64,000 bases of DNA from Rhodoferax sp. Lineage in GTDB: Bacteria; Pseudomonadota; Gammaproteobacteria; Burkholderiales; Burkholderiaceae_C. Of the stretch, positions 547-61,951 are shown in pieces (the stretch's first letter is position 1; every line of letters begins with the position of its first letter). The notes under the pieces are model-generated. The model did no database searches. It was not told where the DNA came from and saw only the letters and a program-made list of their open reading frames with translations. Made by a program: the position numbers and the translations under genes. The stretch is taken from assembly GCA_031428695.1 (NCBI GenBank), contig JANOYE010000093.1, forward strand, positions 2,700-66,699. The letters run 5' to 3'.

Positions 547-1529
547 ACCCCCTGCGAAGCCTGCTGCAAATGACGCTGGACATGTTTGAGCCAGCGCCGG
601 AGAAAAGGCCGCCCAAAGCTGATTTGATTGGAAAACGTAAAGAAAATCGTCCTCCAAGTCACGTATTAATTGCACAATACGCTCCTGAAAATATAGCAAC
701 TGACAGCGGCTTTCGCGCCGAACCGTTGCAAGACGTGATGGCGCCAGCCAACTTTCGCCATCCCCGCGCCAACCGCGAATCCCGCTTGCGCGACGCGCTG
801 GTCGCTTACGAATTCAAGCGGGCCCGTCGCCGCACCATCGGGTTTCAGGTGGGTGCGGACGGCCTGGTTGTCAGCGCCCCCAACTGGGTTCCTCTCTATG
901 AGGTGGAGGCCGCGCTGCAGGAGAAAGCCGCTTGGGTGCTGAAAAAGCTCGACGAAACCCGCGTGCGCAAGGCGCAGCTCGACGCCAACCGCATTGAATG
1001 GCGCGATGGCACCAATTTGCCGTTTTTGGGAGAGCAAGTCATCGTGGTGCTCGACCCACGCCATGCGTTTGGCGATGTGGGCGCTGTGCTGCACACCGAT
1101 GAAGCTGCGCCCAACCTCACGCTGGCCGGTGTGCCACGCCTGACGCTGCATGTGGCTCTGCCGCACAACGCCTCGCCCACGCAGATTCGCGACGCCGTGC
1201 AGGCCTGGTTGATGCGCCAGGCAAAACGCGTGTTCATTGAGCGGCTCAACCACTACGGGCCGCTCCTAGGCGTGCAATGGAAAAAACTCTCCTTGAGCAG
1301 CGCTGGCACGCGATGGGGCAGCGCCAGCGCCGATGGTTCCATCCGCCTGAACTGGCGGCTCATTCATTTCAACCAGTCGGTGATCGACTACGTGGTGGCC
1401 CATGAGCTGAGCCATCTGCGCGTGATGGACCACAGCCCGCGATTTTGGGACACGGTGGCAACGGTCGTACCCGACTACGCCCACCTGCGCCACCAGCTCA
1501 AAGACGATTCATTGCCGCGTTGGAACTGA
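543..1529 (+). CDS. YgjP-like DUF45/M48-fold zinc metallohydrolase; start uncertain (ATG 543 or ATG 738)
   Basis: C-terminal HELSHLRVMDHSPRFW (HExxH) is typical of YgjP/DUF45. ATG 543 overlaps the plsC stop as ATGA. The first ~65 codons are AT-rich and carry repeat copy E, so ATG 738 (MAPANFRH) is an alternative start. Confidence 0.75.
   Translation: MNPLRSLLQMTLDMFEPAPEKRPPKADLIGKRKENRPPSHVLIAQYAPENIATDSGFRAEPLQDVMAPANFRHPRANRESRLRDALVAYEFKRARRRTIGFQVGADGLVVSAPNWVPLYEVEAALQEKAAWVLKKLDETRVRKAQLDANRIEWRDGTNLPFLGEQVIVVLDPRHAFGDVGAVLHTDEAAPNLTLAGVPRLTLHVALPHNASPTQIRDAVQAWLMRQAKRVFIERLNHYGPLLGVQWKKLSLSSAGTRWGSASADGSIRLNWRLIHFNQSVIDYVVAHELSHLRVMDHSPRFWDTVATVVPDYAHLRHQLKDDSLPRWN
655..699 (+). repeat. 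45-bp AT-rich composite motif, copy E
   Basis: CAAGTCACGT-N16-GCTCCTGAAAATA-TAGCAA. It aligns column for column with the eight other copies (see findings). Confidence 0.7.
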
Positions 1530-5817: not shown

Positions 5818-6162
5818 ATGGCGACGCGGCCGGCGGCAGAGCGAAGTTTCCCCCGCCAGGGCGAGGTTTGGTGGGTCAACCTTGACCCAGCCGTGGGCAA
5901 GGAGATCAGCAAAAGGCGGCCCTGCCTGATCGTGTCGCCTGACGACATGAATGAACACCTGGCCACCGTGATCGCAGCGCCCATCACCAGCACCCTGCGA
6001 GAGTGGCCGACCCGCGTGAAAATCCGGCTGCAACGGCAAACCAGCTCGATCGCCCTGGATCAAATGCGGTCTGTTGACCGCGCCAGACTGGTCAAAAAAA
6101 TGACGGCCATCGACCCTGAACCCACGCTTGAAGTGCTGCGTGAAATGTTTGAAAAACCATGA
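5818..6162 (+). CDS. mazF: PemK/MazF-family endoribonuclease toxin
   Basis: GEVWWVNLDPAVGKEISKRRPCLIVSPDDMN and ITS..REWPTRV blocks typical of MazF/PemK. Confidence 0.85.
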   Translation: MATRPAAERSFPRQGEVWWVNLDPAVGKEISKRRPCLIVSPDDMNEHLATVIAAPITSTLREWPTRVKIRLQRQTSSIALDQMRSVDRARLVKKMTAIDPEPTLEVLREMFEKP

Positions 6163-6818
6163 CCAACTCGATCCAAAACCTCTTTGACCACAACCGTGCC
6201 TGGGCCAGCGCCATAGCGCGCGAGCGCCCCGGCTTTTTCACCAACCTGAAGAACCAGCAGTCGCCCAAATACATGTGGATTGGCTGCTCAGACAGCCGCG
6301 TGCCGGCCAACCAGATTACTGGGCTTGAGCCGGGCGAAGTGTTCGTGCACCGCAACGTGGCGAACATCGTGGTGCATTCGGATTTGAACGCGCTCTCAAC
6401 GATTCAATTTGCGGTGGAGCGCCTCAAAGTGCAGCATGTGATGGTGGTGGGCCACTTCGGCTGTTCGGGTGTGCAGGCGGCCCTTGAAGGCGCGCGCATT
6501 GGGCTGGCTGACAACTGGCTGCGCCACATCCAAGACGTGCGGGATCGCCATCGTGGGTTGATCGAATCGTTGCCTGAAACCGTGCGGCACGATGCGCTGG
6601 TGAAACTCAATGTGATCGAGCAGGTGGTGCATGTGGCGCAAAGCACGGTGTTGCAAGACGCTTGGAGCCGAGGGCAAGTGGTGACGCTGCACGGCTGGGT
6701 GTACGGTGTGCATGACGGTTTGCTGCAAGACCTGGAAATGTCAGTTGCTGGGCTGGATTCCCTGGATGGCCAATATCTCAAAGCTGTTGAGGCTGTAAGT
6801 CTCGTAAAACCTGCGTAA
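6159..6818 (+). CDS. can: Beta-class carbonic anhydrase
   Basis: WIGCSDSRVPANQITGLEPGEVFVHRNVANIV and VVGHFGCSGV zinc-ligand blocks, collinear with E. coli Can. Confidence 0.9.
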   Translation: MTNSIQNLFDHNRAWASAIARERPGFFTNLKNQQSPKYMWIGCSDSRVPANQITGLEPGEVFVHRNVANIVVHSDLNALSTIQFAVERLKVQHVMVVGHFGCSGVQAALEGARIGLADNWLRHIQDVRDRHRGLIESLPETVRHDALVKLNVIEQVVHVAQSTVLQDAWSRGQVVTLHGWVYGVHDGLLQDLEMSVAGLDSLDGQYLKAVEAVSLVKPA

Positions 6819-6840
6819 TCAGCTTCAATAAACATAGCAA
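6796..6840 (+). repeat. 45-bp AT-rich composite motif, copy I (spans the can stop codon)
   Basis: TAAGTCTCGT-N16-GCTTCAATAAACA-TAGCAA. The first 14 nt after the initial base are identical to copy H. Confidence 0.7.
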
Positions 6841-6852
6841 CTTCCAGTCACC

Positions 6853-9322: not shown

Positions 9323-10504
9323 ATGAATGATCCCATCGTCATCGTCGGCGCAGCCCGCACCCCTATGGGCGCTTTTCAGGGAGATTTTTCCTCCCTGTCA
9401 GCCCATGATCTGGGCGGCGTGGCGATCAAGGCCGCTGTGGCCCGTGCTGGCATTTCGGCCGATGCCGTCAATGAAGTGCTGTTTGGCAATTGCCTGATGG
9501 CGGGCCAGGGCCAGGCGCCGGCCCGCCAGGCGGCCTTCAAAGGCGGTTTGCCCAACAGTGCGGGCGCTGTCACACTGTCCAAAATGTGCGGCTCAGGCAT
9601 GAAGGCGGCCATGTTCGCACACGACATGTTGCTGGCCGGCACGCATGAGGTGATGGTGGCAGGTGGCATGGAGAGCATGACCAACGCGCCGCATTTGCTG
9701 CTCAAGGGCAGGAGCGGCATCCGCATCGGGCACGACCGCGTGATGGACCACATGATGCTCGACGGCTTGGAAGACGCTTACGAAGCAGGCCGCTCCATGG
9801 GCACGTTTGGCGAAGAATGCGCAGCCAAATACAACTTCACGCGCGAGCAACAAGACGCGTTTGCCACCGCGAGTGTGCAGCGCGCCCAGAAGGCGACCAC
9901 GTCGGGCGCCTTCTCGGCAGAAATGGCCCCGGTCACAGTGAAGGGCCGTGCCGGCGACACGGTGATTTCGATTGACGAAGGCCCAGGCAAGATCAAGCTC
10001 GACAAAATTCCCGCTTTGAAGGCGGCGTTCAAAAAAGACGGCACCATCACGGCGGCCAGCAGCTCCAGCATCAATGATGGCGCGTCTGCGCTGGTGATGA
10101 TGCGCGAATCGACCGCGAAGAAGTTCGGCTGCAAACCGCTGGCCAAAATTGTCGCCCATGCCATGCACGCACAAGAGCCCAACTGGTTCACCACGGCGCC
10201 GGTTGGTGCTGTTCAAAAGGTTTTGGCCAAAGCGGGCTGGAGCGTCAAAGACGTGCAGTTGTGGGAGGTGAACGAAGCCTTTGCCGTGGTGCCGATGGCG
10301 CTGATGAAGGAGTTGGGCGTCAGCCACGACATCGTCAACGTCAACGGCGGCGCTTGCGCGCTGGGGCACCCCATTGGCTCGAGCGGCTCGCGCATCATGG
10401 TGACGCTGATGTATGCCATGCAGGCGCGCGGGCTCAAAAAAGGCGTGGCGACACTGTGCATTGGCGGCGGTGAGGGCACGGCCTTGGCGCTGGAGATGGT
10501 TTAA
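9323..10504 (+). CDS. Acetyl-CoA C-acetyltransferase (thiolase II)
   Basis: Thiolase signatures LSKMCGSGMKA (active-site Cys), NVNGGACALGHPIGSSG and CIGGGEGTAL. AGGAG RBS. Confidence 0.9.
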   Translation: MNDPIVIVGAARTPMGAFQGDFSSLSAHDLGGVAIKAAVARAGISADAVNEVLFGNCLMAGQGQAPARQAAFKGGLPNSAGAVTLSKMCGSGMKAAMFAHDMLLAGTHEVMVAGGMESMTNAPHLLLKGRSGIRIGHDRVMDHMMLDGLEDAYEAGRSMGTFGEECAAKYNFTREQQDAFATASVQRAQKATTSGAFSAEMAPVTVKGRAGDTVISIDEGPGKIKLDKIPALKAAFKKDGTITAASSSSINDGASALVMMRESTAKKFGCKPLAKIVAHAMHAQEPNWFTTAPVGAVQKVLAKAGWSVKDVQLWEVNEAFAVVPMALMKELGVSHDIVNVNGGACALGHPIGSSGSRIMVTLMYAMQARGLKKGVATLCIGGGEGTALALEMV

Positions 10505-10566
10505 ATGCTGAAAATAATCGTGTATTATGAATATTTGTGTTTATTATGATTATTTTACGTTTTGAT

Positions 10567-10611
10567 AATCATCTAAATATATAGCAAATATTTAAATAAA
10601 TACGTGACTTA
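10567..10611 (-). repeat. 45-bp AT-rich composite motif, copy A (partial: lacks the distal TAGC)
   Basis: Minus strand reads TAAGTCACGT-N16-GCTATATATTTAG-ATGATT. It lies in the AT-rich island 10505-10684. Confidence 0.7.
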
Positions 10612-10684
10612 AACCAGCTAATAGTGTATCTCTATATTTGAAAAATATTTATTTCATGCTTAAGCGCAAGCTTCGATCCATCCT

Positions 10685-11812
10685 GTGATCCTCTCCTCTG
10701 AACAAGAAATGGTTCGCGATGCCTTGCGCGAGTTTGCGCAAGCGGAGTTGTGGCCCAACGCTGCGCGCTGGAGCCACGAGCGGCACTTTCCAAGAGAAGC
10801 CCTGCGGGGCCTGGCCAAGCTGGGCGCCTACGGCATCTGTGTGCCGGAAGAGTTTGGCGGGGCGAACCTCGACTACCTTTCACTGGCCCTGGTGCTCGAA
10901 GAAATCGCGGCGGGCGATGGCGGCACCAGCACCATCATCAGCGTGACGAACTGCCCTGTGAACGCCATCCTGCTGAACTACGGCAGCGCCGAGCAGAAGA
11001 AAAAATGGCTGACGCCGCTTGCGCAAGGCAAGTTGCTCGGCGCGTTTTGCCTGACCGACCCGCACGTGGGCTCGGACGCCTCGTCCCTGAAAACCACGGC
11101 AGTGAAGGTGGGTGGCGACTATGTGATCAACGGCGTCAAGCAGTTCATCACCAGCGGTAAAAACGGCGACGTCGCCATCGTTATTGCAGTCACCGACAAA
11201 GGCGCAGGCAAAAAAGGCATGAGCGCCTTTTTGGCGCCCACCGATTCACCCGGTTACGTAGTGGCACGTCTTGAAGACAAGATGGGCCAGCACAGCAGCG
11301 ACACGGCGCAGATCAATTTCGACAACTGCCACGTGCCCAGCGAGAATTTGATTGGTCAAGAGGGCGAGGGCTACAAAATTGCCTTGGGCGGCTTGGAAGG
11401 CGGGCGCATCGGCATTGCCGCGCAAAGCGTTGGCATGGCGCGCAGCGCGCTCGACTGCGCCATTGCCTATGCCAAAGAGCGCACAAGTTTTGGCCAAAAC
11501 ATCTTCAGCCACCAGGCGGTGGGTTTTCGGCTCGCCGACTGCGCCACGCAGCTCGAAGCGGCGCGGCAACTGATCTGGCACGCCGCATCGCTGCGCGATG
11601 CTGGCAGGCCCTGCCTGAAAGAAGCCGCGATGGCCAAGCTTTTTGCCAGTGAAATGGCCGAGCGGGTAAGCAGCGCCGCGCTCCAGACGCTTGGCGGTTA
11701 CGGGTATGTGAGCGACTTTCCGGTCGAACGCATCTGCCGCGACGTGCGGGTGTGCCAGATTTACGAAGGCACCTCCGACATCCAGAAAATGATCATCCAA
11801 CGCAGCCTTTGA
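10685..11812 (+). CDS. Acyl-CoA dehydrogenase (short/branched-chain type)
   Basis: Full-length ACAD similarity ([32 protein letters not shown]). GTG start at 10685; the next ATG is at 10709. Confidence 0.9.
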
Positions 11813-13631: not shown

Positions 13632-14300
13632 ATGACGAGGTTCCAGGCGGTTCTATTTGATTGCGACGGCGTGCTGGTGGACAGCGAGCCCATCACCAAT
13701 GGCGTCTTGCGTGAAATGTTGGCCGAGCGCGGCTGGCACATCACCCAAGAAGAGTGCATGCGCACTTTTGTCGGCAAGGCATTGAAAGATGAAACGGCGC
13801 AGATCGAAAAACGCACCGGCGCTGCCGTGTCCGCGGCGTGGCTTGCCGAATTTGCAGAGCGCCGAAATGCGGCGCTGATGCTGCGCGTTCTGGCGGTTCC
13901 GAACGTGGTTGACGCGGTGCGCCAGATCCACGCGGCTTACCCAGGGCGGATTGCCTGCGCATCAGGCGCCGACCGGCGCAAGGTCGAGTTGCAGCTGCGC
14001 AAAGTCGGGCTGTTTGACTGTTTTGAAGGCCGCATTTTCAGCGGTTATGAAACACCACGATCCAAACCTTTTCCGGATGTGTATTTAGCCGCCGCAGCGG
14101 CACTCGCTGTCGATGCGGCCCATTGTGCGGTGGTGGAAGACACGGTGCCGGGCGTGACCGCCGGCGTCTCGGCCAAATCAACCGTGTTTGCCTATTCGCC
14201 GCCCAGCACGTTTCATGTGAGCCCGCAGCAGTTGCGGCAGGCAGGCGCACATCACCACTTCGTGGACATGGCCCATTTGCCGCCGCTTTTGGTGGCGTGA
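13632..14300 (+). CDS. HAD-superfamily hydrolase (subfamily IA phosphatase-like)
   Basis: Motif I LFDCDGVLVDSE and C-terminal VEDTVPGVTAG. Confidence 0.8.
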   Translation: MTRFQAVLFDCDGVLVDSEPITNGVLREMLAERGWHITQEECMRTFVGKALKDETAQIEKRTGAAVSAAWLAEFAERRNAALMLRVLAVPNVVDAVRQIHAAYPGRIACASGADRRKVELQLRKVGLFDCFEGRIFSGYETPRSKPFPDVYLAAAAALAVDAAHCAVVEDTVPGVTAGVSAKSTVFAYSPPSTFHVSPQQLRQAGAHHHFVDMAHLPPLLVA

Positions 14301-14347
14301 TGGCCTGGCTGCGGAAAATTTAGAAGAAGAACACGGAGAATTTTCAA

Positions 14348-15970
14348 ATGGCGATTCTGGAAACCAAACTCAATGCGCGGTCTGCCGACTTTCTGGCCAA
14401 TGCTGCTGCCATGCGCGCCGTGGTGGAAGACCTGAAAACAAAGATTGCGCAAACCGCTTTGGGCGGCGGCGACGCGGCCCGCGCCAAACACACGGCACGC
14501 GGCAAGTTGTTGCCACGTGAGCGGGTGCAAATGCTGCTCGATCCCGGCACGCCGTTTCTGGAGTTTTCGCCCCTGGCGGCGATGAACATGTACCCCGACC
14601 GTGACGGCACTGACAGCGCCCCGTGCGCGGGTGTGATCACCGGCCTTGGCCGCGTCAGCGGTGTCGATTGCCTGATTGTCTGCAACGACGCCACGGTGAA
14701 AGGCGGCACCTACTACCCCATGACGGTGAAGAAACATTTGCGGGCGCAAGAGATCGCGCAGCAGAATAATTTGCCGTGCATCTATCTGGTTGATTCCGGT
14801 GGCGCGAATCTGCCGAACCAGGACGATGTCTTTCCTGACCGAGACCACTTTGGCCGTATCTTCTACAACCAGGCGAACCTCAGCGCGCAGGGCATCGGCC
14901 AGATCGCCGTGGTGATGGGCTCCTGCACAGCAGGCGGCGCTTATGTGCCTGCGATGAGCGACGAAACCATCATCGTCAAAAACCAGGGCACGATTTTTCT
15001 GGGCGGCCCGCCCTTGGTGAAGGCGGCGATTGGCGAGATTGTGTCGGCGGAAGATTTGGGTGGCGGCGACGTGCACACGCGGTTGTCTGGCGTGGCAGAC
15101 CACTTGGCGCAGAACGACCCGCATGCATTGGCGTTGGCCCGGGCGGCTGTCAAGAATTTGAACAGAAACAAGGTTTCAAGTCTCGTAAAACAAGCGTCAA
15201 TCGCTCCTAAATATGTAGCGAAAGAAATTTACGGCGTCATCCCTGTTGACACCCGAAAACCGTACGACGTGCGCGAAATCATTGCTCGCATTGTTGATGG
15301 CTCCGAGTTTGATGAATTCAAAGCGCGTTTCGGCAGCACGCTGATCTGTGGCTTTGCCCGCATTGAAGGCATGCCCATTGGCATCGTTGCCAACAACGGC
15401 ATTTTGTTCAGCGAATCGGCGCAGAAAGGCGCGCACTTCATCGAGCTGTGTTGCCAGCGCAAGGTGCCGCTGTTGTTCCTGCAAAACATCACCGGTTTCA
15501 TGGTCGGGCGCAAATACGAGAACGAAGGCATTGCCCGCCATGGCGCGAAGATGGTCACCGCTGTGGCCACCGCGCAAGTGCCCAAATTCACCATCATCAT
15601 TGGCGGCAGTTACGGGGCGGGCAACTACGGCATGTGCGGCCGCGCCTATTCGCCGCGCTTTTTGTGGATGTGGCCCAACGCGCGCATCTGCGTGATGGGC
15701 GGCGAGCAGGCCGCCAGCGTGTTGGCCACCGTGCGGCGCGACGGCATCGAGGCCAAAGGCGGAACCTGGAGTACCGATGAGGAGTTGAAATTCAAGCAGC
15801 CTATGCTCGACCAGTTCGCCCTCCAGTCGCATCCTTATTACGCCAGCGCCCGACTGTGGGACGATGGCGTGATCGACCCGGCGGACACGCGGCGCGTGTT
15901 GGGGCTGGCCTTGTCAGCATCGCTGAACGCCCCGATTCCAGATACTAAGTTCGGTGTGTTCCGGATGTGA
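14348..15970 (+). CDS. liuB: Methylcrotonyl-CoA carboxylase, carboxyltransferase (beta) subunit
   Basis: Full-length carboxyltransferase similarity ([41 protein letters not shown]-terminus). liu context. Confidence 0.9.
15177..15221 (+). repeat. 45-bp AT-rich composite motif, copy H (inside the liuB coding sequence)
   Basis: CAAGTCTCGT-N16-GCTCCTAAATATG-TAGCGA. It encodes [16 protein letters not shown] in a variable linker of liuB. Confidence 0.7.
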
Positions 15971-15982
15971 TGGCAAAGACAA

Positions 15983-17119
15983 ATGACTGACAATATTTTC
16001 ATCACACCCGAGCACGAGTTGCTTCGGGAGCAGATCGCCCGGTTCATCGCCCGCGAAGTGGAGCCACATGCCGCCGCCTGGGAAGAAGCCGGTTTCACGC
16101 CGCGCGAGGTTTTGCGCAAGATGGGCCAGGCTGGGCTATTTGGCCTGATGTACGAGGCGCAATATGGCGGGGGCGAGGCCGACGCGTTGGCCAACCTGGT
16201 GTTTGCCGAAGCGCTGTCGCAATCCACTTTCGGCGGCTTCATCATCACGGTGCTGGTGCACACGGACATGGCCAGCCCGCACCTGCACCATGCCGGCACG
16301 CCTGCGCAGAAGGCGCGTTATTTGCCAGGCGTCATCCGGGGCGACACCATCACAGCGGTCGGCATCACGGAGCCCGGCGCGGGTTCTGACGTGGCGGGCA
16401 TGCGCACAACCGCGAAGCGCGATGGAGGCGACTGGGTGCTCAACGGCACCAAGATGTTCATCACCAACGGCGTGCATGCTGACCTGTATTTCGTCGCTGC
16501 CAAAACTGGCACGGCGCGGCATGACATGTCGATGTTCATCGTCGAAAAAGGCACACCCGGCTTTTCGGTGGGGCGGGCGCTGAACAAGACCGGCTGGCTG
16601 TCGTCCGACACCGCCGAGTTGGTGTTTGACAACAGCCGCATCCCTGCGGGCAATCTGCTTGGCGAAGAGGGCAAAGGCTTTTACTCGGTGATGAAAAACT
16701 TTCAGACCGAGCGCATTGCGTTGGCGGCCATGGCGGTTGGCCACTGCACGCAGGCCCTCAAACTCACACTCGACTTTGTGCGCCAGCGCCAGGCTTTCGG
16801 CGCACCCTTGTGGGAGAAACAAACCATCCGCCAGCGCATTGCCATGTGCGACGCCAAGACGCGCTCCGCGCGGCAGTTCATGTACCACTGCGCTTGGGGC
16901 GTGACACAGGGGCGCGACATTGTGCAGGAGGTGTCGATGCTCAAGGCCTTGACAGGCGAGCTCGTCAACGAAGTGCTGCAAACCTGTCAGCAGTTTCATG
17001 GCGGCATGGGTTACATGCGTGAAAGCCCGATTGAGCGCCTGTGGCGCGACGCGCGGGTGCTGGCGATTGGCGGCGGCGCCACGGAAGTGATGTTGGAAGA
17101 GGTTGCGAAAAGATATTGA
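15983..17119 (+). CDS. Acyl-CoA dehydrogenase family protein
   Basis: ACAD blocks ([32 protein letters not shown]). It occupies the position between liuB and liuD where liuC is usually found. Confidence 0.85.
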   Translation: MTDNIFITPEHELLREQIARFIAREVEPHAAAWEEAGFTPREVLRKMGQAGLFGLMYEAQYGGGEADALANLVFAEALSQSTFGGFIITVLVHTDMASPHLHHAGTPAQKARYLPGVIRGDTITAVGITEPGAGSDVAGMRTTAKRDGGDWVLNGTKMFITNGVHADLYFVAAKTGTARHDMSMFIVEKGTPGFSVGRALNKTGWLSSDTAELVFDNSRIPAGNLLGEEGKGFYSVMKNFQTERIALAAMAVGHCTQALKLTLDFVRQRQAFGAPLWEKQTIRQRIAMCDAKTRSARQFMYHCAWGVTQGRDIVQEVSMLKALTGELVNEVLQTCQQFHGGMGYMRESPIERLWRDARVLAIGGGATEVMLEEVAKRY

Positions 17120-17165: not shown

Positions 17166-17405
17166 ATGCGAACCAACATCGTGATTGACGACAAACTCAT
17201 GGCTTCGGCCATGAAAGCAGGCGCATTCAAAACCAAGAAAGACGCGGTTGAGGAAGGCTTGCGTTTGCTCGCCCGCCGCGCGGCCTACCAAAACCTCCGG
17301 GCTTTGCGGGGCAAGTTGCAGTGGAGCCTGGAGGGCGATTGGACGCAATCGCAAAACGTGGTTCAGCAAACGGGTCAGCCCGGGTTCTCAACCCCCGCAA
17401 GATGA
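17166..17405 (+). CDS. vapB: VapB-family antitoxin
   Basis: MRTNIVIDDKLMASAMK N-terminus is typical of VapB-type antitoxins. Its stop overlaps the vapC ATG (ATGA). Confidence 0.75.
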   Translation: MRTNIVIDDKLMASAMKAGAFKTKKDAVEEGLRLLARRAAYQNLRALRGKLQWSLEGDWTQSQNVVQQTGQPGFSTPAR

Positions 17406-17809
17406 TCACCGCCGACAGCAGCGTCTGGATCGACTACTTCGGCGGCCGCGTCACGCCCGCCACTGGGCAACTCGACGTGGTGCTGGACGACTCCAGCCAG
17501 GATGTGGTGCTGTTGGACGTGGTGTTGATGGAAGTGCTGCGTGGTTTCCGTTTTGACCGCGAATGGAAAGTGGCCCGCGATGCCTTCGCTGCCGTGCCGA
17601 TCTTGACCGCAGGCGGTGAAACCGTGGCCATGAAGGCGGCCAGCCTCTACCGCATGCTGCGCAGTGAAGGCTCGACGATTCGCTCTTCCATCGATCTGTT
17701 GGTGGGCACATGGTGCATCGAAAATGATTGTGGATTGATTCACAGCGACCGTGATTTCACGCCCATGGTGAACCACGGCTTGCAAGTTTGGAGCCATGAA
17801 GGCGCATAG
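17402..17809 (+). CDS. vapC: PIN-domain toxin VapC
   Basis: MITADSSVWIDYF (first acidic residue), LMEVLRG, and IDLLVGTWCIENDCGLIHSDRDF. The start is moved to ATG 17402 within track ORF 17321..17809. Confidence 0.85.
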   Translation: MITADSSVWIDYFGGRVTPATGQLDVVLDDSSQDVVLLDVVLMEVLRGFRFDREWKVARDAFAAVPILTAGGETVAMKAASLYRMLRSEGSTIRSSIDLLVGTWCIENDCGLIHSDRDFTPMVNHGLQVWSHEGA

Positions 17810-23883: not shown

Positions 23884-24039
23884 GGCCCGCCGGAGCGCCG
23901 CCGCTTGCCGCAGGAGCGGGTTCAATTTTAAATTAATTTGTATGTTAATAAATTGATGAAATTGAGTAAAAATTAACATGTATGTTAATTGTTGACGCAA
24001 TTTTCGTCAACGTTCAAAAATATGAACATTTTCGCCATC

Positions 24040-24084
24040 CAAGTCACGTGAAATGGCCATTTGTTGCTATATATAATATAGCGT
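24040..24084 (+). repeat. 45-bp AT-rich composite motif, copy D
   Basis: CAAGTCACGT-N16-GCTATATATAATA-TAGCGT in the AT-rich island 23920-24110. Confidence 0.7.
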
Positions 24085-24110
24085 CCATCCGGTTGCAAAA
24101 TAAGTGGATC

Positions 24111-29565: not shown

Positions 29566-32500
29566 ATGCCTCAGGGAATCATCCGCATTCGCGGAGCGCG
29601 CCAGCACAACCTCAAGAACCTCAATCTCGACATCCGAACTGGCGAACTGACGGTGGTTACCGGGCCCAGCGGTTCGGGGAAATCAAGCCTGGTTTTTGAC
29701 ACCTTGTACGCCGAAGGGCAACGCCGCTACGTCGAAACGTTTTCAGCCTACGCACGCCAGTTCATGGACCGCATGGACAAACCGGCGGTGGACAAAGTCG
29801 AAGGCGTGCCGCCGGCCATCGCGATTGACCAGACTAACCCGGTGCGGTCGTCGCGCTCCACCGTGGGCACGATGACGGAGCTCAATGACCACCTCAAACT
29901 GCTGTTCGCGCGGGCCGGGGCTTTGTTTGACCGCGACACAGCGCAGGCCGTGCGGCACGACTCGCCAGAAAGCATTTATGCGGAGTTGATGGCGAAGACC
30001 GCAGGCCAGCCCGAGCTTCGTATTGCGGTGACGTTCCCAGTCGAATTGCCAGGCAGCGCCACACCGCAAGAAATTGAACAATGGCTGTCCGTGAGCGGCT
30101 TCACACGCGTGCAGGCACAGCGCGAAGTGGCCAGTGTGACGGGGCCGCGCAAGGTGCTTGACGTGGTGGCAGACCGTTTCCGCCTCGCCAACACGGAGCG
30201 CGCGCGCGTGGTTGAAGCGATTGAAGTGGCGCTCAAACACGGAAGTGGGCGAATGTCGGTCTACCCTGTGCTTGAAGACGACAACGCTCAGCCATTGATC
30301 TGGAAGTTTTCAACCGGGCTGCACTGCGCCGACAGCGACATTCGTTACGCTGACCCGATTGCTTCGATGTTCTCATTCAACTCGGCGGTCGGGGCTTGCG
30401 AAACCTGCCGTGGTTTTGGCCGCGTAATCGGTGTTGACTACGGTTTGGTCATTCCCGACGACAAGAAGACCTTGCGCGCAGGGGCCATCAAACCCATGCA
30501 AACGCCGGCCTGGCAGGAGTGTCAGGACGACCTGATGCGCCACAGCGAGGCGGCGGGCATTCCGCGCGACACGCCCTGGTACAAACTCACGCCCGAGCAC
30601 CAGCAGTGGGTCATCAACGGCTCGCCGAACTGGAATGGCAAATGGAACCAGCACTGGTTTGGCATCAAGCGCTTCTTTGAATACCTGGAGACCAAAGCCT
30701 ACAAGATGCACATCCGGGTGCTGCTCTCCAAATACCGCAGCTACACGCCGTGCCACGCCTGCGGCGGCGCCCGTTTGAAGACCGACAGCCTGTTGTGGCG
30801 CATCGGCGCAAAGACCGACGCCGACGACGTGTTGGCGCCGGCGAAGCGCTTCATGCCCCAAGGTGTGAAATGGACGCGCGCCCAGGTTGAAGCCTTGCCC
30901 GGCCTGTGCCTGCACGACCTGATGACCTTGCCCGTCGAACGGTTGCGCCGGTTTTTTGACCGGATGGCGGCGAGCCAAGTGCGCGCGACCAAAGATGGTG
31001 AAGCACAGGCCCTGAAGCTGTTGTTTGAAGAAATCTGCACGCGGCTCAAATACCTGTGTGACGTCGGCATTGGTTACCTCACGCTGGATCGCCAAAGCCG
31101 CACGCTGTCGGGCGGCGAGGTGCAACGCATCAACCTCACCACCGCGCTGGGCACGTCGCTGGTCAACACGCTTTTCGTGCTGGATGAGCCCAGCATCGGC
31201 CTGCATCCGCGTGACATGAGCCGCATCATCGTTGCCATGCAGCGCCTGCGTGACGCCGGCAACACCCTGGTGGTGGTCGAACACGACCCAGCGGTGATGC
31301 TCGCTGCAGACCGCATGATCGACATGGGCCCCGGCCCCGGCGAGCGCGGCGGGCGCATCGTGTTTGACGGCTCTACGCGTGACTTATGCAACGCCGACAC
31401 CTTGACGGGCGCCTACCTTGGCGGTCGCAAGCAAGTTGGCATGGGCTTCAAGCGGTTGGTGGCAGACAACACGCCTAGGTTGATACTTGAGGGCGCGTCC
31501 GAGCACAACCTGAAGAACGTGACGATTGAATTTCCACTCCAATGCCTGGTGTGTGTGACCGGTGTCAGCGGTTCAGGTAAATCTACGTTGATTCAGGATG
31601 TGCTGCACCCTGCCTTGGTGCGCCACTTTGGCAAGGCTACGGAAACTCCGGGTGCCCATGAGCGCTTGTTGGGGGCGGATTTCCTCGGCGAAGTGGTGTT
31701 TGTCGACCAGTCGCCCATTGGCAAGACAGCCCGCTCCAACCCGGCCAGTTACGTTGGCGCCTGGGACGCCATCCGCGAGATTTTTGCCAACGCCCCTCTG
31801 GCGCGCCAACGCGGCTACACCGCGACCAAATTCAGCTTCAACAATGGCGATGGCCGTTGCGCCATGTGCGGCGGCTCCGGCTTTGAACACATCGAGATGC
31901 AGTTCTTGAGCGACGTGTACCTGCGTTGCCAGGATTGCGACGGTAAACGTTACCGACCCGAAATTCTCGAAGTGATGATTGAGCGGCGTTCGGCTGACAC
32001 CGCCCAACTGGCGGGCATGAACGTGGCCGCCGTGCTGAATCTCACAGTGAGTGAAGCAGCCCTGGTGTTTGAAAACGACCGTGACGTGCTTCGTGCGCTG
32101 CAACCCATCATCGACGTGGGGCTGGAATACGTCAAACTGGGCCAGCCCGTGCCCACACTCTCCGGTGGAGAATCTCAGCGCCTGAAGTTGGCTGGGTTTT
32201 TGGCGGGGGCGGCGAAAAGCGCGTCCGCCAGCAGGCAGCCGCTGGCGCGGCGCGGCACACTCTTCATGTTCGACGAGCCCACCACCGGCCTGCATTTTGA
32301 TGACATTGCCAAACTCATGCGCGCCATGCGTAAGTTGCTGGGCGCGGGCCATTCGATCATTGTCATCGAGCACAACCTGGACGTAATCCGCGCCAGCGAC
32401 TGGCTGATTGATTTAGGCCCCGAAGGCGGGGACGCCGGCGGCGAGCTGGTAGCAGTCGGCACGCCGGAGGACGTGCGCCAACATCTCAGCTCACACACCG

Positions 32501-35292: not shown

Positions 35293-35416
35293 ATTCCTGG
35301 CGGGTTTTTAGGCCTGCAAGCAAATTTGACGCGGAGTAAAGTCAAGATATTCAGAGCGTCTAAAATTGCGTTTAGTATAAATTGTTGTTTATTTTGTGAC
35401 TCTTTAAAAGTCTAAT

Positions 35417-35461
35417 TTAATTTAAATAATGTAGCAAATACTTGAAAAAATACGTGACTTA
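35417..35461 (-). repeat. 45-bp AT-rich composite motif, copy B (partial: lacks the distal TAGC)
   Basis: Minus strand reads TAAGTCACGT-N16-GCTACATTATTTA-AATTAA. It lies in the AT-rich island 35293-35551. Confidence 0.7.
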
Positions 35462-35551
35462 CCTTGCTTTCAATTAGCTAAAAAATTTAGGAGAATAGTT
35501 ATTTTTAATCCACCTGACTCTGCGCCAGACTCTCATTGGAAACATGGTGGA

Positions 35552-35997: not shown

Positions 35998-36849
35998 TCA
36001 GCCGGGTGAAATTTGGCGCTTGGCTGCCCAACCCTGGCGCTGCAACACGGCCCGCGCCAGCTCGGCAAACCCGGCGCCGCGCGCGCCTTGAGTAACGTAA
36101 CGCGGCTTGTGGTTGAGCTGCGGCAAAAAGCGTTCGATATTGGCCACACCCACGCTGTAAGTGAAGTGATGGAACATGGCCTGGTCATTGCCTGAATCAC
36201 CGACGAACACCCAGGCGTCCAGTTCGCGCGCCAGATCAATGCCCCACAACTCGCGCGCAATCCAGCAGGCGCCGCGCCACTTGTCAAACACGCCGAAGCA
36301 GCCGTGGATGTGGATGCTGCTGACCGTGGTGTGCATGCCCTCGTCTTGCAGGATGGCCAACACCTTCGCCACAGTTTCGGGCGGCAATCTCACATGTTCG
36401 TTGTAGTCAAAGGCCAGGTCGGTTTCGCGCCCCGCGCTGTCGGCTGAAAGCCCGGCTTCGGGAACTTCTAGCAACACCCGGGCCGCCACCTGCTGCATTC
36501 GCCGGAAATTTTGACTGCGATTGGCGGCGTCTTGTTGATATAATTTTAATAGCAAACTATCGCCATTTTGCGTGACTTGGATGCCGTTTTTATTCTTGAT
36601 CAATGCGACGGAGCCGTTTTCGGCCACTATCGTACCCAATATGGGGTTTATTTGAATGAGCGCTTCACACCAGCCGACCGGGCGCCCCGTGATGGCGATG
36701 ACGCGCAGGCCCGCTGCCTGCAGACTGTCCAGCGCCTCAAGCGCGTCTGGCGTAATCTCGCCCTCGGTCGTCAGGGTGTCGTCGATGTCGGTGAACACAC
36801 CCGTGATGTTGCGGCGTTGCGCCAGCGGCCAATCTGCCAGGGGCTTCAT
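35998..36849 (-). CDS. HAD-IIB family hydrolase (sugar-phosphate phosphatase-like)
   Basis: Motif I VFTDIDDTLT, ITGRP, and C-terminal VGDSGNDQAMF. The start is moved to ATG 36849 (MKPLADW). It lies 13 nt downstream of prfC. Confidence 0.8.
   Translation of the reverse strand: MKPLADWPLAQRRNITGVFTDIDDTLTTEGEITPDALEALDSLQAAGLRVIAITGRPVGWCEALIQINPILGTIVAENGSVALIKNKNGIQVTQNGDSLLLKLYQQDAANRSQNFRRMQQVAARVLLEVPEAGLSADSAGRETDLAFDYNEHVRLPPETVAKVLAILQDEGMHTTVSSIHIHGCFGVFDKWRGACWIARELWGIDLARELDAWVFVGDSGNDQAMFHHFTYSVGVANIERFLPQLNHKPRYVTQGARGAGFAELARAVLQRQGWAAKRQISPG
36535..36579 (-). repeat. 45-bp AT-rich composite motif, copy F (inside the HAD-IIB coding sequence, sense orientation)
   Basis: Minus strand reads CAAGTCACGC-N16-GCTATTAAAATTA-TATCAA. 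It encodes QVTQNGDSLLLKLYQ. Confidence 0.7.
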
Positions 36850-39137: not shown

Positions 39138-39169
39138 TGCAAAAATCTCCAAACGCGCTAAAATCCGCG

Positions 39170-39272
39170 CATCCGAGGAGCGATGCAGTTCAATCCCCAC
39201 CCAGGTGGCATGAACGAGGCTCGGATCTGGCAAGCCGCAGGGCAAGCCGCCTGTTTCAACCGCGCTCACCCA
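39170..39272 (+). promoter_or_regulatory. SAH (S-adenosylhomocysteine) riboswitch
   Basis: CCGAGGAGCGAUGCAG ... GAGGCUCGGAUC ... CAACCGCGCUCAC matches the conserved SAH-element segments as I recall them. It lies directly upstream of ahcY, the usual context in Betaproteobacteria. Confidence 0.75.
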
Positions 39273-39348
39273 CTGTTCTGTGAGGTGAGTCCCCCAAAGA
39301 TTCCGTCACAGCCACCGTGGTTCTCAAATTTACTTTTGGAGCACACTT

Positions 39349-40812
39349 GTGAGCGCTGTATTGAAACCCATTAAAAACCAAGATTACGCGATTGCCGACC
39401 TGAGCCTGGCCGCCTGGGGCCGCAAAGAGCTGAACATCGCCCAGACCGAAATGCCCGGCCTGATGTCGATCCGCGAAGAGTTCGCCAAGTCGAAGCCGCT
39501 GAAGGGCGCGCGCATCACCGGCAGCCTGCACATGACGATTCAAACCGCCGTGCTGGTCGAAACCCTGCAAGCCCTGGGCGCCGAAGTGCGTTGGGCCTCG
39601 TGCAACATTTTCTCCACGCAAGACCACGCCGCTGCTGCCCTGGTGGCCGCAGGCACGCCGGTGTTTGCCTACAAGGGCGAGAACCTGGTGGACTATTGGG
39701 ATTACACCCACCGCATCTTCGAATTTGATGGCAAAAAGGGTTCCGCCGCTGAAGGCCCAAACATGATTCTGGACGACGGCGGCGATGCCACCCTCCTGAT
39801 GCACCTGGGCAGCTTGGCCGAGAAAAACCTCAAAGTCGTCGCCAAACCCACCAGCGAGGAAGAAATTTGCCTCTTCAACGCCATCAAGGCCAAGCTGAAG
39901 CTTGACCCGACCTGGTACAGCCGCCGCCTGAAAAACATCATCGGCGTGACCGAAGAGACGACCACCGGCGTGCATCGCCTGAACGAGATGAGCGCCAAAG
40001 GCACGCTGATGCTGCGCGCCATCAACGTCAACGATTCCGTCACCAAATCCAAATTTGACAACCTGTATGGTTGCCGCGAGTCCCTGGTGGACGCCATCAA
40101 ACGCGCCACCGACGTGATGATCGCCGGCAAAGTGGCCCTGGTGGCTGGTTACGGCGACGTGGGCAAAGGCTCGGCCCAAGCCCTGCGTGCGTTGTCTGCC
40201 CAGGTGTGGGTGACCGAGATTGACCCGATCAACGCGCTGCAAGCCGCGATGGAAGGTTACAAAGTCGTCACGATGGAATACGCGGCTGACAAAGCCGACA
40301 TTTTTGTCTCCGCCACCGGCAACAAAAACGTCATCAGCTACAAACACATGGCGGCCATGAAAGACCAGGCCATCGTCTGCAACATCGGCCACTTTGACAA
40401 TGAAATCGACGTCGCTTCATTGGAGAAGTGCCAGTGGGAAGAGATCAAGCCGCAGGTGGACCACGTGATCTTCCCTGCGGTAACGACGAAAAAGGGAAAA
40501 ACACCGTCCAAACGCATCATTCTGTTGGCCAAAGGCCGCCTGGTGAATTTGGGTTGCGGCACCGGCCACCCCAGTTTTGTGATGTCGTCCAGCTTCGCCA
40601 ACCAGACCATTGCCCAGATTGAGCTCTTCACCAAGCCGAAAGAATACAAAGTCGGCAAGGTTTACGTATTGCCCAAACACCTGGACGAAAAAGTCGCGCG
40701 TTTGCACCTTAAAAAGGTCGGCGCGGTGTTGACCGAGTTGACCACTGAGCAGGCCGACTACATTGGCGTCTCCAAGGCCGGCCCCTACAAGGCGGACAGC
40801 TATCGCTATTGA
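39349..40812 (+). CDS. ahcY: Adenosylhomocysteinase
   Basis: Full-length AhcY similarity ([43 protein letters not shown] fold). GTG start with GGAG RBS. Confidence 0.95.
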
Positions 40813-40844: not shown

Positions 40845-41777
40845 ATGCGGGCTGACCAGCTCCTGCTGCAACGCGGCATCGCAAGCTCCCGCTCGCAGGC
40901 GCAACGCTTGATTGCATCGGGCGTGCGCTGGCGTGCCGATATTGAAGTGCCAGTTGGCGCGTTGGCGGCGGCCTGGAAACACATCGGAAAAAACAGCGAT
41001 GAGTTGCCGGTTGAGGCCGTCATCGAGCTGCTTGATGCGTCCGAAGCGAAATACGTCTCGCGTGGCGGCTTGAAGCTTGAAGGCGCGTTGAAGGCCACCG
41101 GCGTCACTGTCGAAGGCAAAACCTGCCTTGACGTGGGCCAATCGACCGGCGGCTTCACCGATTGCCTGTTGCAACACGGCGCCAAACGGGTGATGGGTGT
41201 GGACGTTGGCAGTGGCCAATTGCACCCGTCAATGCGCCAACACCCTCAGGTGGTAGCGCTGGAGCATGTCAACGCGCGGGAGTTGTCCGCTACTGAATTA
41301 ATAGCTGCATACGAAAATAATTCGAGACTTGGCGGCCAGTTTGATGAAGAAGACGATCAAATCGGCGGCGCGCTGCTTGCATCAGCGCCTGGCTCGGCTC
41401 CTGCTGGGGGCGCGGCGTCAAACTTAGACGCAGGCTTCGACGCCAGTTTCGATCTCATCGTCGGCGACTTGTCTTTCATCTCCCAAACGCTGGTGCTGCC
41501 CGCTCTGGCGCCGCTGCTCAAGCCCGGCGCAGTTCTGCTGATGTTGGTCAAACCGCAGTTTGAGCTGCAACCCGGCCAGGTCGGCAAAGGCGGCATTGTC
41601 AAAGACGCGGCCCTGTACAAAATCGTCGAAAAACGAATTCGCGACAGTTGTGCCGAATTGGGCCTGGCCGTCATCCGCTGGGTGGACAGCCCCATCACCG
41701 GCGGTGACGGCAACCGTGAATTTTTTGTCCACGCGCAACGGCTTATTGACGTTCCCGCCCCTAACAAAGGTGCTTAA
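40845..41777 (+). CDS. tlyA: TlyA-family rRNA 2'-O-methyltransferase with a ~45-aa internal insertion
   Basis: N-terminal S4 domain (MRADQLLLQRGIASSRSQAQRLI), SAM motif DVGQSTGGFTDCLL, and DLSFISQ ... LVKPQFE. Low-complexity insertion between NAR and FDLIVGD. Confidence 0.85.
   Translation: MRADQLLLQRGIASSRSQAQRLIASGVRWRADIEVPVGALAAAWKHIGKNSDELPVEAVIELLDASEAKYVSRGGLKLEGALKATGVTVEGKTCLDVGQSTGGFTDCLLQHGAKRVMGVDVGSGQLHPSMRQHPQVVALEHVNARELSATELIAAYENNSRLGGQFDEEDDQIGGALLASAPGSAPAGGAASNLDAGFDASFDLIVGDLSFISQTLVLPALAPLLKPGAVLLMLVKPQFELQPGQVGKGGIVKDAALYKIVEKRIRDSCAELGLAVIRWVDSPITGGDGNREFFVHAQRLIDVPAPNKGA
41287..41331 (-). repeat. 45-bp AT-rich composite motif, copy G (inside the tlyA insertion, antisense)
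   Basis: Minus strand reads CAAGTCTCGA-N16-GCTATTAATTCAG-TAGCGG. Confidence 0.6.
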
Positions 41778-61756: not shown

Positions 61757-61863
61757 CGAGCGGTGTTGCGATGGCGCCTGACTGATTTTAAAGTATTAAC
61801 TTCCATGTTAACAAATTGAATCAAACTGCCCCTTTTTGGATTATTTAAAGAAAATTATGCCTC

Positions 61864-61908
61864 TAAGTCACGAATTATATAGATTTGTTGCTATTAATAA
61901 TATAGCAA
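61864..61908 (+). repeat. 45-bp AT-rich composite motif, copy C
   Basis: TAAGTCACGA-N16-GCTATTAATAATA-TAGCAA in the AT-rich island 61781-61930. Confidence 0.7.
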
Positions 61909-61951
61909 TCAATATTTGCTGCAGAGGCGCAGTCTGATCCCATGAGCCTTC

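Follow-up and report, generated by a model that had tools for sequence, protein, structure and literature searches.

A translated, in-frame copy of a dispersed AT-rich mosaic repeat within liuB of a Rhodoferax genome

The liuB-like gene of a Rhodoferax sp. metagenome-assembled genome (MAG; GenBank assembly GCA_031428695.1), which encodes the beta subunit of methylcrotonyl-CoA carboxylase (MCC), contains a full copy of an AT-rich mosaic repeat that is dispersed throughout the same genome. We hold, with moderate confidence, that this copy, here named copy H, is an old, translated, in-frame member of the repeat family, whose DNA has been kept and whose species-specific word has been updated together with the family without a change of frame or length, and that LiuB carries it as a tolerated passenger. 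The gene lies within a stretch of 64,000 nt (contig JANOYE010000093.1, positions 2,700 to 66,699; C93:2700-66699 in our contig numbering), which was analysed as a whole and is referred to as the window. The MAG itself (G000) comprises 4.42 Mb in 400 contigs, with a GC content of approximately 60%.

Copy H within the liuB gene

The gene and the parts of copy H are located in the window as follows.

14348..15970, plus strand: intact liuB-like open reading frame (ORF; MCC beta subunit, 540 aa); residues 48-535 match positions 2-490 of the 493 in the Pfam Carboxyl_trans profile, and structure 3u9r_B is matched with E = 3e-256
15158..15227, plus strand: copy H, a full 70 nt family match (53.6-53.8 bits), translated in frame (23 residues)
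15178..15185, plus strand: left word AAGTCTCG, a variant of the species word AAGTCACG, within the S-S-L-V codons; the T variant is present in 53 of 614 copies
15186..15202, plus strand: AT-rich 17 nt spacer TAAAACAAGCGTCAATC; the 17 nt spacing is fixed in all copies
15203..15219, plus strand: right module GCTCC-TAAATAT-GTAGC, a variant of the palindrome GCTAY-W7-RTAGC, over the conserved A-P-K-Y plus V-A

Copies were scored with a 70 nt weight matrix, for which seeds from the window were extended by an iterative genome-wide build with copy H left out. Scored in this manner, copy H reaches 53.6-53.8 bits, close to the family median of 57.8 bits over 682 sites. An earlier note on this DNA had reported a complete motif copy in an AT-rich patch of liuB; sequence, peptide and patch are as described there, and the score is far above those of all controls. 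When the bases of the patch were shuffled 200,000 times the mean was -55 bits and the maximum 9.2 bits, while the 23-residue peptide, recoded synonymously 200,000 times according to the codon usage of the genome, gave a mean of -20 and a maximum of 30.9 bits. The reversed genome yielded a maximum of 23.2 bits and no site of at least 30 bits. Within liuB the GC content falls to 0.38-0.42 at 15150-15239, compared with approximately 0.6-0.7 in the flanks, and GC content at third codon positions is 0.35 in the patch, against 0.70 expected for its peptide and 0.74 for liuB as a whole. Taken together, the recoding control and this third-position deficit indicate that the codons, beyond the amino acids they encode, are shaped to spell the motif.

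A chance resemblance of ordinary AT-rich linker sequence could draw on the AT-richness of certain outgroup linkers (GC 0.40-0.46 in L017, L024 and L025) and on the A-P-K-Y residues, which dictate part of the right module. This explanation is effectively refuted by the controls given above and by the orthologues. The four genomes scored from other families, all without the palindrome family, give -13 to -105 bits at the same register, and in two further species these codons exactly match the different word that is the species' own.

Copy H is read in the frame that is typical of the genic copies of the family (S2, described below), and its GCTCC form of the right module is also found in other copies, for example at 636-705 of the window. 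The spacer form AA(A/T)CAAGCGTC is common to the liuB genes of G000, G014 and G020, and is partly present in G006 and G021. In a low-confidence AlphaFold model (mean predicted local distance difference test score 57.5), linker residues 272-290 form a coil between helices 257-271 and 291-297.

The repeat family and its species-specific words

The genome of G000 holds 682 sites of at least 18 bits, approximately 640 of them of at least 30 bits, which equates to about one per 6.5 kb over 4.42 Mb. The family consensus reads ...TTTTAAgA.AAAT.GGCCTC(T/C) AAGTCACG (T/A)A.AAT.TGCGTAA... GCTAT W7 ATAGC AA, and the unit is a mosaic of, in order, an optional upstream palindrome, an A-tract, a word of 8-9 nt, a 17 nt AT-rich spacer and GCTAY-W7-RTAGC. 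The upstream palindromes are either TTAAYA-N4-TRTTAA (107 sites) or ACCCAA..TTGGGT (38 sites); they accompany intergenic copies and stand 60-70 nt 5' of the word in 131 of 145 cases. In G004 the same position is taken by terminator-like hairpins such as AAAAAGAACCTGCAGGTTCTTTTTT. Overall the conservation profile ends near -80 and +50, while genic copies extend only from about -32 to +46. Because the strength of conservation is uneven from position to position, constraint is favoured over neutral decay. Watson-Crick pair counts in the GCTAT/ATAGC arms, which are 5-7 nt long, equal the expectation under independence; without compensatory pairing the palindrome behaves as a pair of half-sites, as read by a protein, and not as a selected hairpin. 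An RNA or DNA hairpin formed by GCTAT-W7-ATAGC was ruled out on the same lack of covariation, and an Rfam scan of the window placed no family at any motif copy.

Among the 614 copies of at least 35 bits, spacers between convergent genes account for 121, those between divergent genes for 30 and tandem spacers for 255 (123 and 132 in the two orientations), with 128 deep in ORFs. Counted over all 682 sites, 148 copies (about 22%) are deep in ORFs, 76 of them sense and 72 antisense. Three of the six reading frames dominate, namely S2 with 59 copies (peptide ..SHEK.AQ.A.K.IA..), A2 with 43 and A1 with 23. Hosts of genic copies include LiuB, PurL (two copies), MutS, LeuRS, MetH, HrpA, an RNase II-like protein and XdhA. 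Some other possible roles and associations were considered and set aside. Replication polarity of the Chi or KOPS (FtsK-orienting polar sequence) kind was rejected, as only 109 copies against 78 are co-oriented with the local GC skew, a bias like that of genes; likeness to sigma-54 and dif/Xer sites was dropped since the spacings do not fit. As a test of sub-family linkage, association of the T-variant word with TAAAAC was not significant (p = 0.33). In a subset of copies the right half is swapped for very AT-rich tracts (GC about 0.3), making islands of 200 nt, for example at 10481-10690 and 35321-35540; such islands probably add to the fragmentation of these MAGs.

The palindrome GCTAY-W7-RTAGC was surveyed in 24 congeners, 16 other families of the order and 100 genera of the same family. 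All 24 congeners contain 16-234 matches per genome, compared with 0-1 in the 16 other families. The pattern is found in 37 of the 100 genera, for which reversed-pattern controls were near 0. Judged by its named liuB relatives, the organism belongs to Comamonadaceae-type Burkholderiales. The 8 nt word, in contrast to the palindrome, differs between species. The counts below are exact matches of word-N17-GCTAY per genome; the 357 matches in G000 divide into 179 forward and 178 reverse, with 0 in the reversed control.

AAGTCACG: 357 in G000, 201 in G011, 226 in G018, 253 in G023; 0-4 in others
AGTCCCCG: 325 in G005, 257 in G009, 50 in G007
GGCCGTCA: 102 in G006; 0-2 in others
TAGCTCTCG: word of G004 (sampled contigs)
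T[AT]GCCC[TC]CG: word of G014 (sampled contigs)
TAGCCCCCG: word of G020 (sampled contigs)

In an ungapped codon alignment of liuB, identical codons of G000, G005 and G006 hold three different words, each being the family word of its own species.

G000: word cAAGTCTCG, peptide SSLV, spacer TAAAACAAGCGTCAATC, right module GCTCC-TAAATAT-GTAGC
G005: word tAGTCCCCG (AGTCCCCG), peptide LVPV, spacer TACTTATTGAACCATTA, right module GCTCC-TAAATAT-GTAGC
G006: word GGCCGTCA, peptide EAVT, spacer CAAAACAAGCCTCTGTA, right module GCTCC-TAAATAT-ATAGC

In the liuB tree G006 and the AAGTCACG clade are sister groups, but the G006 word departs from AAGTCACG at 7 of 8 positions. A comparable pattern is evident at other loci. 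In a HAD-like gene, seven species share the position and the length of a copy but not its word; G000 and G006 again disagree at 7 of 8 word positions, while the next 42 nt are 86% identical. The intergenic spacer that holds the copy at 61845-61914 of the window is likewise occupied in seven species, with AAGTCACG in G000 and G011, AGCTCTCG in G002 and G003, TAGCTCTCG in G013, TAGCTCCCG in G004 and an inverted TAGCCCCAG in G010. These words, a TAGCTC(T/C)CG form among them, agree with the species' words where the latter were determined (G000, G011 and G004), and the remaining flanking sequence cannot be aligned between species. Genome-wide, with orthology of copies judged from the similarity of their flanks, 14 of 24 copies (about 58%) from G005 and G014 with syntenic flanks have a copy at the same location in G000. 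At one such site (C119:3611 against G005) 47 of 61 non-word positions are identical and the words are CAAGTCACG and AAGTCCCCG.

The length of the LiuB linker was compared among 29 relatives, 80 named Burkholderiales orthologues and the MCC beta subunit of P. aeruginosa (3u9r_B). No indel was found in the linker of the 29 relatives, and none in 71 of the 80 named orthologues. The alignment to 3u9r_B is ungapped there, the 5 extra residues of the 540-aa LiuB being located near residue 85; the earlier note was therefore right that the P. aeruginosa linker has the same length, but the sequence it gave (NLNRQK) is in fact NLNWRKQGQLQCRAPRAPLYPAEELYGVIP. As the linker is constant in length with or without the motif, copy H is not a net insertion. 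In G033, an outgroup without the repeat family, liuB has AGT GTC GTA and CCA AAA TTT where G000 has AGT CTC GTA and CCT AAA TAT, and the A/E-P-K-Y/F block of LiuB is conserved across the order, from which it follows that the motif was laid over pre-existing, partly compatible codons.

In the alignment of liuB orthologues, which the earlier note had proposed, partial copies are found in G014, G020, G012, G021, G007 and G008, and GC-rich linkers of the same length in G011, G018, G023, G004, G017, G022, G013, G016, G010, G019 and G024. In the liuB tree, motif-bearing species are found on both sides of the deepest division within the genus; the liuB copy is accordingly ancestral and has been eroded repeatedly. 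Copy H is thus an old in-frame copy and not a recent one-step overwrite. Independent copies in the same linker were found in liuB of Variovorax sp. PCZ-1 (L150), a Polaromonas MAG (L154) and a Variovorax MAG (L155); these (AQSAIEIVA, AQAAIKSIV) lie 5-6 codons 5' of PKY and add 5 to 10 aa. The linker is evidently a recurrent landing place for the repeat. AT-rich GCTCCTAAATAT..GCA codons were also observed in the same linker in liuB of Alicycliphilus, Simplicispira and Rhodoferax.

Other copies and features of the window

Apart from copy H, the window contains the following copies of the family.

636..705, plus strand: copy, 64.6 bits, in the 5' part of ORF 543-1529
6777..6846, plus strand: copy, 56.3 bits, at the 3' end of ORF 6159-6818
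10561..10630, minus strand: copy, 42.9 bits, in an intergenic AT-rich island
24021..24090, plus strand: copy, 60.2 bits, with a P1 palindrome upstream at 23973-23988
35411..35480, minus strand: copy, 46.7 bits, in an intergenic AT-rich island
36529..36598, minus strand: copy, 64.3 bits, in frame and sense in the HAD-like gene 35998-36849
41281..41350, minus strand: copy, 60.1 bits, antisense in the TlyA-like gene 40845-41777 (plus strand)
61845..61914, plus strand: copy, 80.6 bits, intergenic, with a P1 palindrome at 61796-61811

The TlyA-like methyltransferase contains a genus-specific insertion of approximately 20-90 aa relative to outgroups, between VNAR and FDLIVGD, and the antisense copy is located at the start of this insertion. 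The corresponding copy in the TlyA-like gene of G011 is eroded but still alignable.

Downstream of liuB a long co-directional cluster continues with an acyl-CoA dehydrogenase (ACAD) gene, vapB/vapC, a DUF4126 gene and the gene for the MCC alpha subunit. The vapB/vapC (PIN) toxin-antitoxin pair (17166-17405 and 17339-17809, plus strand) and the DUF4126 gene are located inside the liu cluster, in the interval between the ACAD and MCC alpha genes. The sole Rfam match in the window is an S-adenosylhomocysteine (SAH) riboswitch (RF01057, 45 bits) at 39169-39274 on the plus strand, 5' of ORF 39349-40812, presumably the S-adenosylhomocysteine hydrolase gene. ORF 29566-35292 (plus strand, 1,908 aa) contains three internally repeated ABC-ATPase-like segments (repeat families D1, D2, D5, D10 and D12) and may encode a duplicated UvrA-like protein.

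Interpretation and comparison with known systems

If copy H is indeed an old family member that LiuB tolerates, the copy sits in the unstructured inter-domain linker because the linker accepts almost any sequence of fixed length. The right half-site lies over the ancestral A/E-P-K-Y/F codons, with the rest of the linker recoded around it. A species-specific trans-acting reader of fast-evolving specificity would recognise the word, the 17 nt interval and the palindrome, and copies would be homogenised by short templated patches, akin to gene conversion and spanning about 12 nt or less around the word, with the conserved flanks as guide. As such patches would be short and templated, length and frame would never change. 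The 8 nt word in liuB has been replaced in step with the other copies of each species, giving SSLV, LVPV and EAVT at the same four codons, and the liuB copy would have no part in the regulation of the liu genes. Templated patches are favoured since a switch at 7 of 8 positions at hundreds of loci, on a branch of about 0.13 substitutions per site, would be hard to achieve by independent point mutations, and since for 20% of the copies in G000 the nearest partner is closer than expected from the matrix. Most copies in G000 are as diverged as independent draws from the matrix.

The suggestion of the earlier note that a variable linker was overwritten by the cassette through patch conversion is supported in substance. 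There was no net insertion, it is the DNA and not the peptide that is kept, and three species have their own words at the same codons; the copy is nevertheless old, has no close donor, and covers ancestral codons with its right half. Possible, though less likely than not, is a dedicated templated process that would rewrite the word of 8-12 nt to a species-specific sequence at hundreds of sites, codons of housekeeping genes among them, with length and frame unaltered, thereby imposing different amino acids on the same positions in sister species. One concrete variant would be an uptake or self-recognition signal of naturally transformable Comamonadaceae, with dialects.

A number of observations weigh against copy H being a passenger that was updated in place. 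A search for a recent donor in G000 found none, the closest match to copy H being 41/58 identities, no better than independent matrix draws (31st percentile of the null). Elsewhere, genic copies have altered the length of their hosts, with MutS +1, LeuRS +6, and PurL +7 and +13 relative to homologues in the PDB, and with -4, +5, +7, +13 to +19 and +26 aa among eleven genic hosts compared with G033. The family includes both same-length and insertion-like genic cases, and liuB is at the same-length end. In G004 only one of six syntenic sites is occupied in G000 and five are empty (four of these intervals measure just 19-142 nt), and the G004 copies are near-identical over about 70 nt, as in transposition; the family can also make new copies, as it has there. 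Lineage-specific sequence persists in the liuB spacer, which would confine any conversion tract to a very short length, and no recombination system is known to make such short conversions at hundreds of loci. The reader protein is putative. Furthermore, the compared genomes are all fragmented MAGs, genes were called with our own crude caller (4,095 genes, 88% coding, both approximate), and the words of G004, G014 and G020 were read only from contig samples of 100-200 kb.

A signal resembling the DNA uptake sequence (DUS), of which the unit would be a preferred competence substrate, is the main rival; it is rather unlikely, although all the features of the distribution fit it. Copies would arise and persist in place through uptake-biased recombination, the words would be dialects that co-evolve with the DNA receptor, and liuB would simply be permissive. 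Consistent with this, copies occupy both strands without bias in gene orientation, are enriched at 3' ends and in convergent spacers, and favour three genic frames; words vary by species beside a remainder that is conserved, the word has been switched at positional orthologues, length is unchanged in liuB or MutS, and the palindrome, lacking pairing covariation, behaves as a protein-read site. Against it, DUS and the uptake signal sequence (USS) occur about once per kb and the present repeat about once per 6.5 kb, and a unit of about 75 nt is longer than any known uptake sequence. Upstream palindromes at a fixed distance, together with near-identical G004 copies facing empty G000 sites, indicate copying of the unit, and the switch at 7 of 8 positions between sister lineages is as difficult here by point mutation. 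Within the Comamonadaceae, Acidovorax and Verminephrobacter undergo natural transformation by means of type IV pili, and DNA from another Acidovorax species failed to transform Acidovorax strains (PMC4212676). Such relatives, refractory to heterospecific DNA, lend the uptake explanation some support, yet the failed transformations may merely reflect sequence divergence. In Neisseriaceae both DUS dialects and intragenic DUS are established (PMC3630211).

It is improbable that an element of the miniature inverted-repeat transposable element (MITE) or Rickettsia palindromic element (RPE) type was inserted in frame in the ancestor of the genus and that a later deletion chanced to restore the length of the linker. 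Many other genic copies do add residues (+13 to +26 aa relative to G033), the Variovorax and Polaromonas copies lengthen the same linker by 5 to 10 aa, G004 has lineage-specific copies, and RPEs demonstrate that in-frame repeats within enzymes are possible (PMC10969869). However, linker length is exactly the same with and without the motif in more than 100 orthologues, G033 has the near-matching codons already without having the family, and species words at identical codons would be left unexplained. Still less probable, to a degree that we give it very little weight, is an internal sense promoter or other cis-regulatory site for the downstream ACAD, vapBC and liuD genes, which the earlier note had offered as an example of a motif selected inside the gene. 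The patch is indeed AT-rich in a GC-rich gene, maintained as DNA, and upstream of a long co-directional cluster, and to that extent maintenance at the DNA level is supported. The promoter role is not, as the family has the opposite of a promoter distribution (convergent 121, divergent 30, tandem 123 against 132) and 72 of 148 genic copies are antisense. No sigma-70-like pair of -35 and -10 hexamers with 16-18 nt spacing was found at 14300-16100 (0 sites), and G011, G018, G023, G004 and others have lost the patch but kept liuB.

If copies are updated together in the manner proposed, a widespread group of environmental Betaproteobacteria, about a third of the sampled genera in the family, would carry hundreds of copies of a signal that overrides codon usage and amino-acid identity inside enzymes. 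Its specificity word would turn over between sister species with the whole dispersed family following, reading frames included, which would make the repeat a natural system in which to study how short dispersed repeats evolve in concert. The repeat would further introduce peptide variation between lineages into conserved proteins, and it would be a candidate cause of the species-specific transformation of Acidovorax-like bacteria, for which there is no explanation so far. In practical terms, the AT-rich units probably explain the strong fragmentation of the MAGs of this genus, and they set traps for annotation in the form of false starts and of 'insertions' in TlyA and PurL. The words could act as species barcodes.

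Searches of the literature by sequence strings, and by taxon combined with terms for repetitive extragenic palindromic (REP) sequences, found no account of this repeat; as their coverage was incomplete, it may already be described. Of known elements, RPEs resemble it in being dispersed repeats in frame within unrelated housekeeping genes (here PurL, MutS, LeuRS, MetH, HrpA and LiuB), in their permissive sites, in orthologous positions kept among species and in preferred frames. RPE inserts measure approximately 100-150 bp and add about 30-50 residues (PMC10969869), whereas the genic unit here is about 75 nt and its hosts differ in length by -4 to +26 aa, liuB being unchanged. Unlike an RPE, the repeat has not extended liuB (0 aa), MutS, LeuRS or PurL by its own full length, and instead of a palindrome that folds over its full length it has arms of 5-7 nt. 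Unlike RPEs, the liuB repeat has no element-wide hairpin or pairing covariation, has a concerted species word, and belongs to Burkholderiales and not Rickettsiales.

MITEs are likewise non-coding, non-autonomous and multi-copy. As for empty sites, the near-identical G004 copies mostly stand opposite empty syntenic sites in G000, which may fit such elements, but 14 of 24 G005 and G014 sites are occupied in G000 as well. The unit is, however, directional, G000 copies are mostly diverged, and old positions change their word in place. No terminal inverted repeats or target-site duplications were seen and no matching termini are evident in the conservation profile, although no dedicated search was made.

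The likeness to DUS and USS includes presence on both strands and in coding as well as non-coding sequence, preference for the terminator side of genes, dialects that vary by clade around a conserved core, and an origin or upkeep that involves no indels; USS, moreover, joins a specific core with AT-rich flanks. The repeat differs from them in a unit of about 75 nt compared with 10-32 nt, in being about 6 times sparser, and in its fixed-distance accessory palindrome and copy bursts. Sister species can disagree at as many as 7 of the 8 word positions, compared with 1-4 positions among DUS dialects.

Like REP sequences and bacterial interspersed mosaic elements (BIME), and like REP doublets with their associated tyrosine transposases (REPIN-RAYT), the family consists of hundreds of short AT-rich units that are mosaic, located 3' of genes, species-specific and long-lived at orthologous sites. 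In contrast to REP, which is extragenic, 22% of its copies are intragenic. The three RAYT-like (Y1_Tnp) genes of G000 are flanked by another repeat, GGGGTCAGATTCC, with REPIN-like doublets of its own. At the RAYT-like gene on C134, inverted AATTGGGGTCAGATTCCAATT is present on both sides and a single motif copy lies nearby on one side only. The AATTGGGGTCAGATTCCAATT family comprises about 20 exact cores, many of them paired as inverted doublets at a distance of 44-63 nt (C134:5500-6470, and also on C45, C72, C106 and C196), and resembles a classical REPIN-RAYT system that is distinct from the family of copy H. Across genera, Y1_Tnp was matched in 23 of the 26 that are rich in the palindrome and in 45 of the remaining 74 (Fisher p = 0.013), and G067, G125 and G140 are palindrome-rich without a match. 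A REP-RAYT origin is not supported, as the RAYT-like genes have their own repeat and the association across genera is weak with these three exceptions. RPEs, DUS dialects and REP/BIME mosaics are the nearest analogues of the repeat, and none of them combines length-neutral in-frame copies, concerted replacement of the word and a family-wide palindrome.

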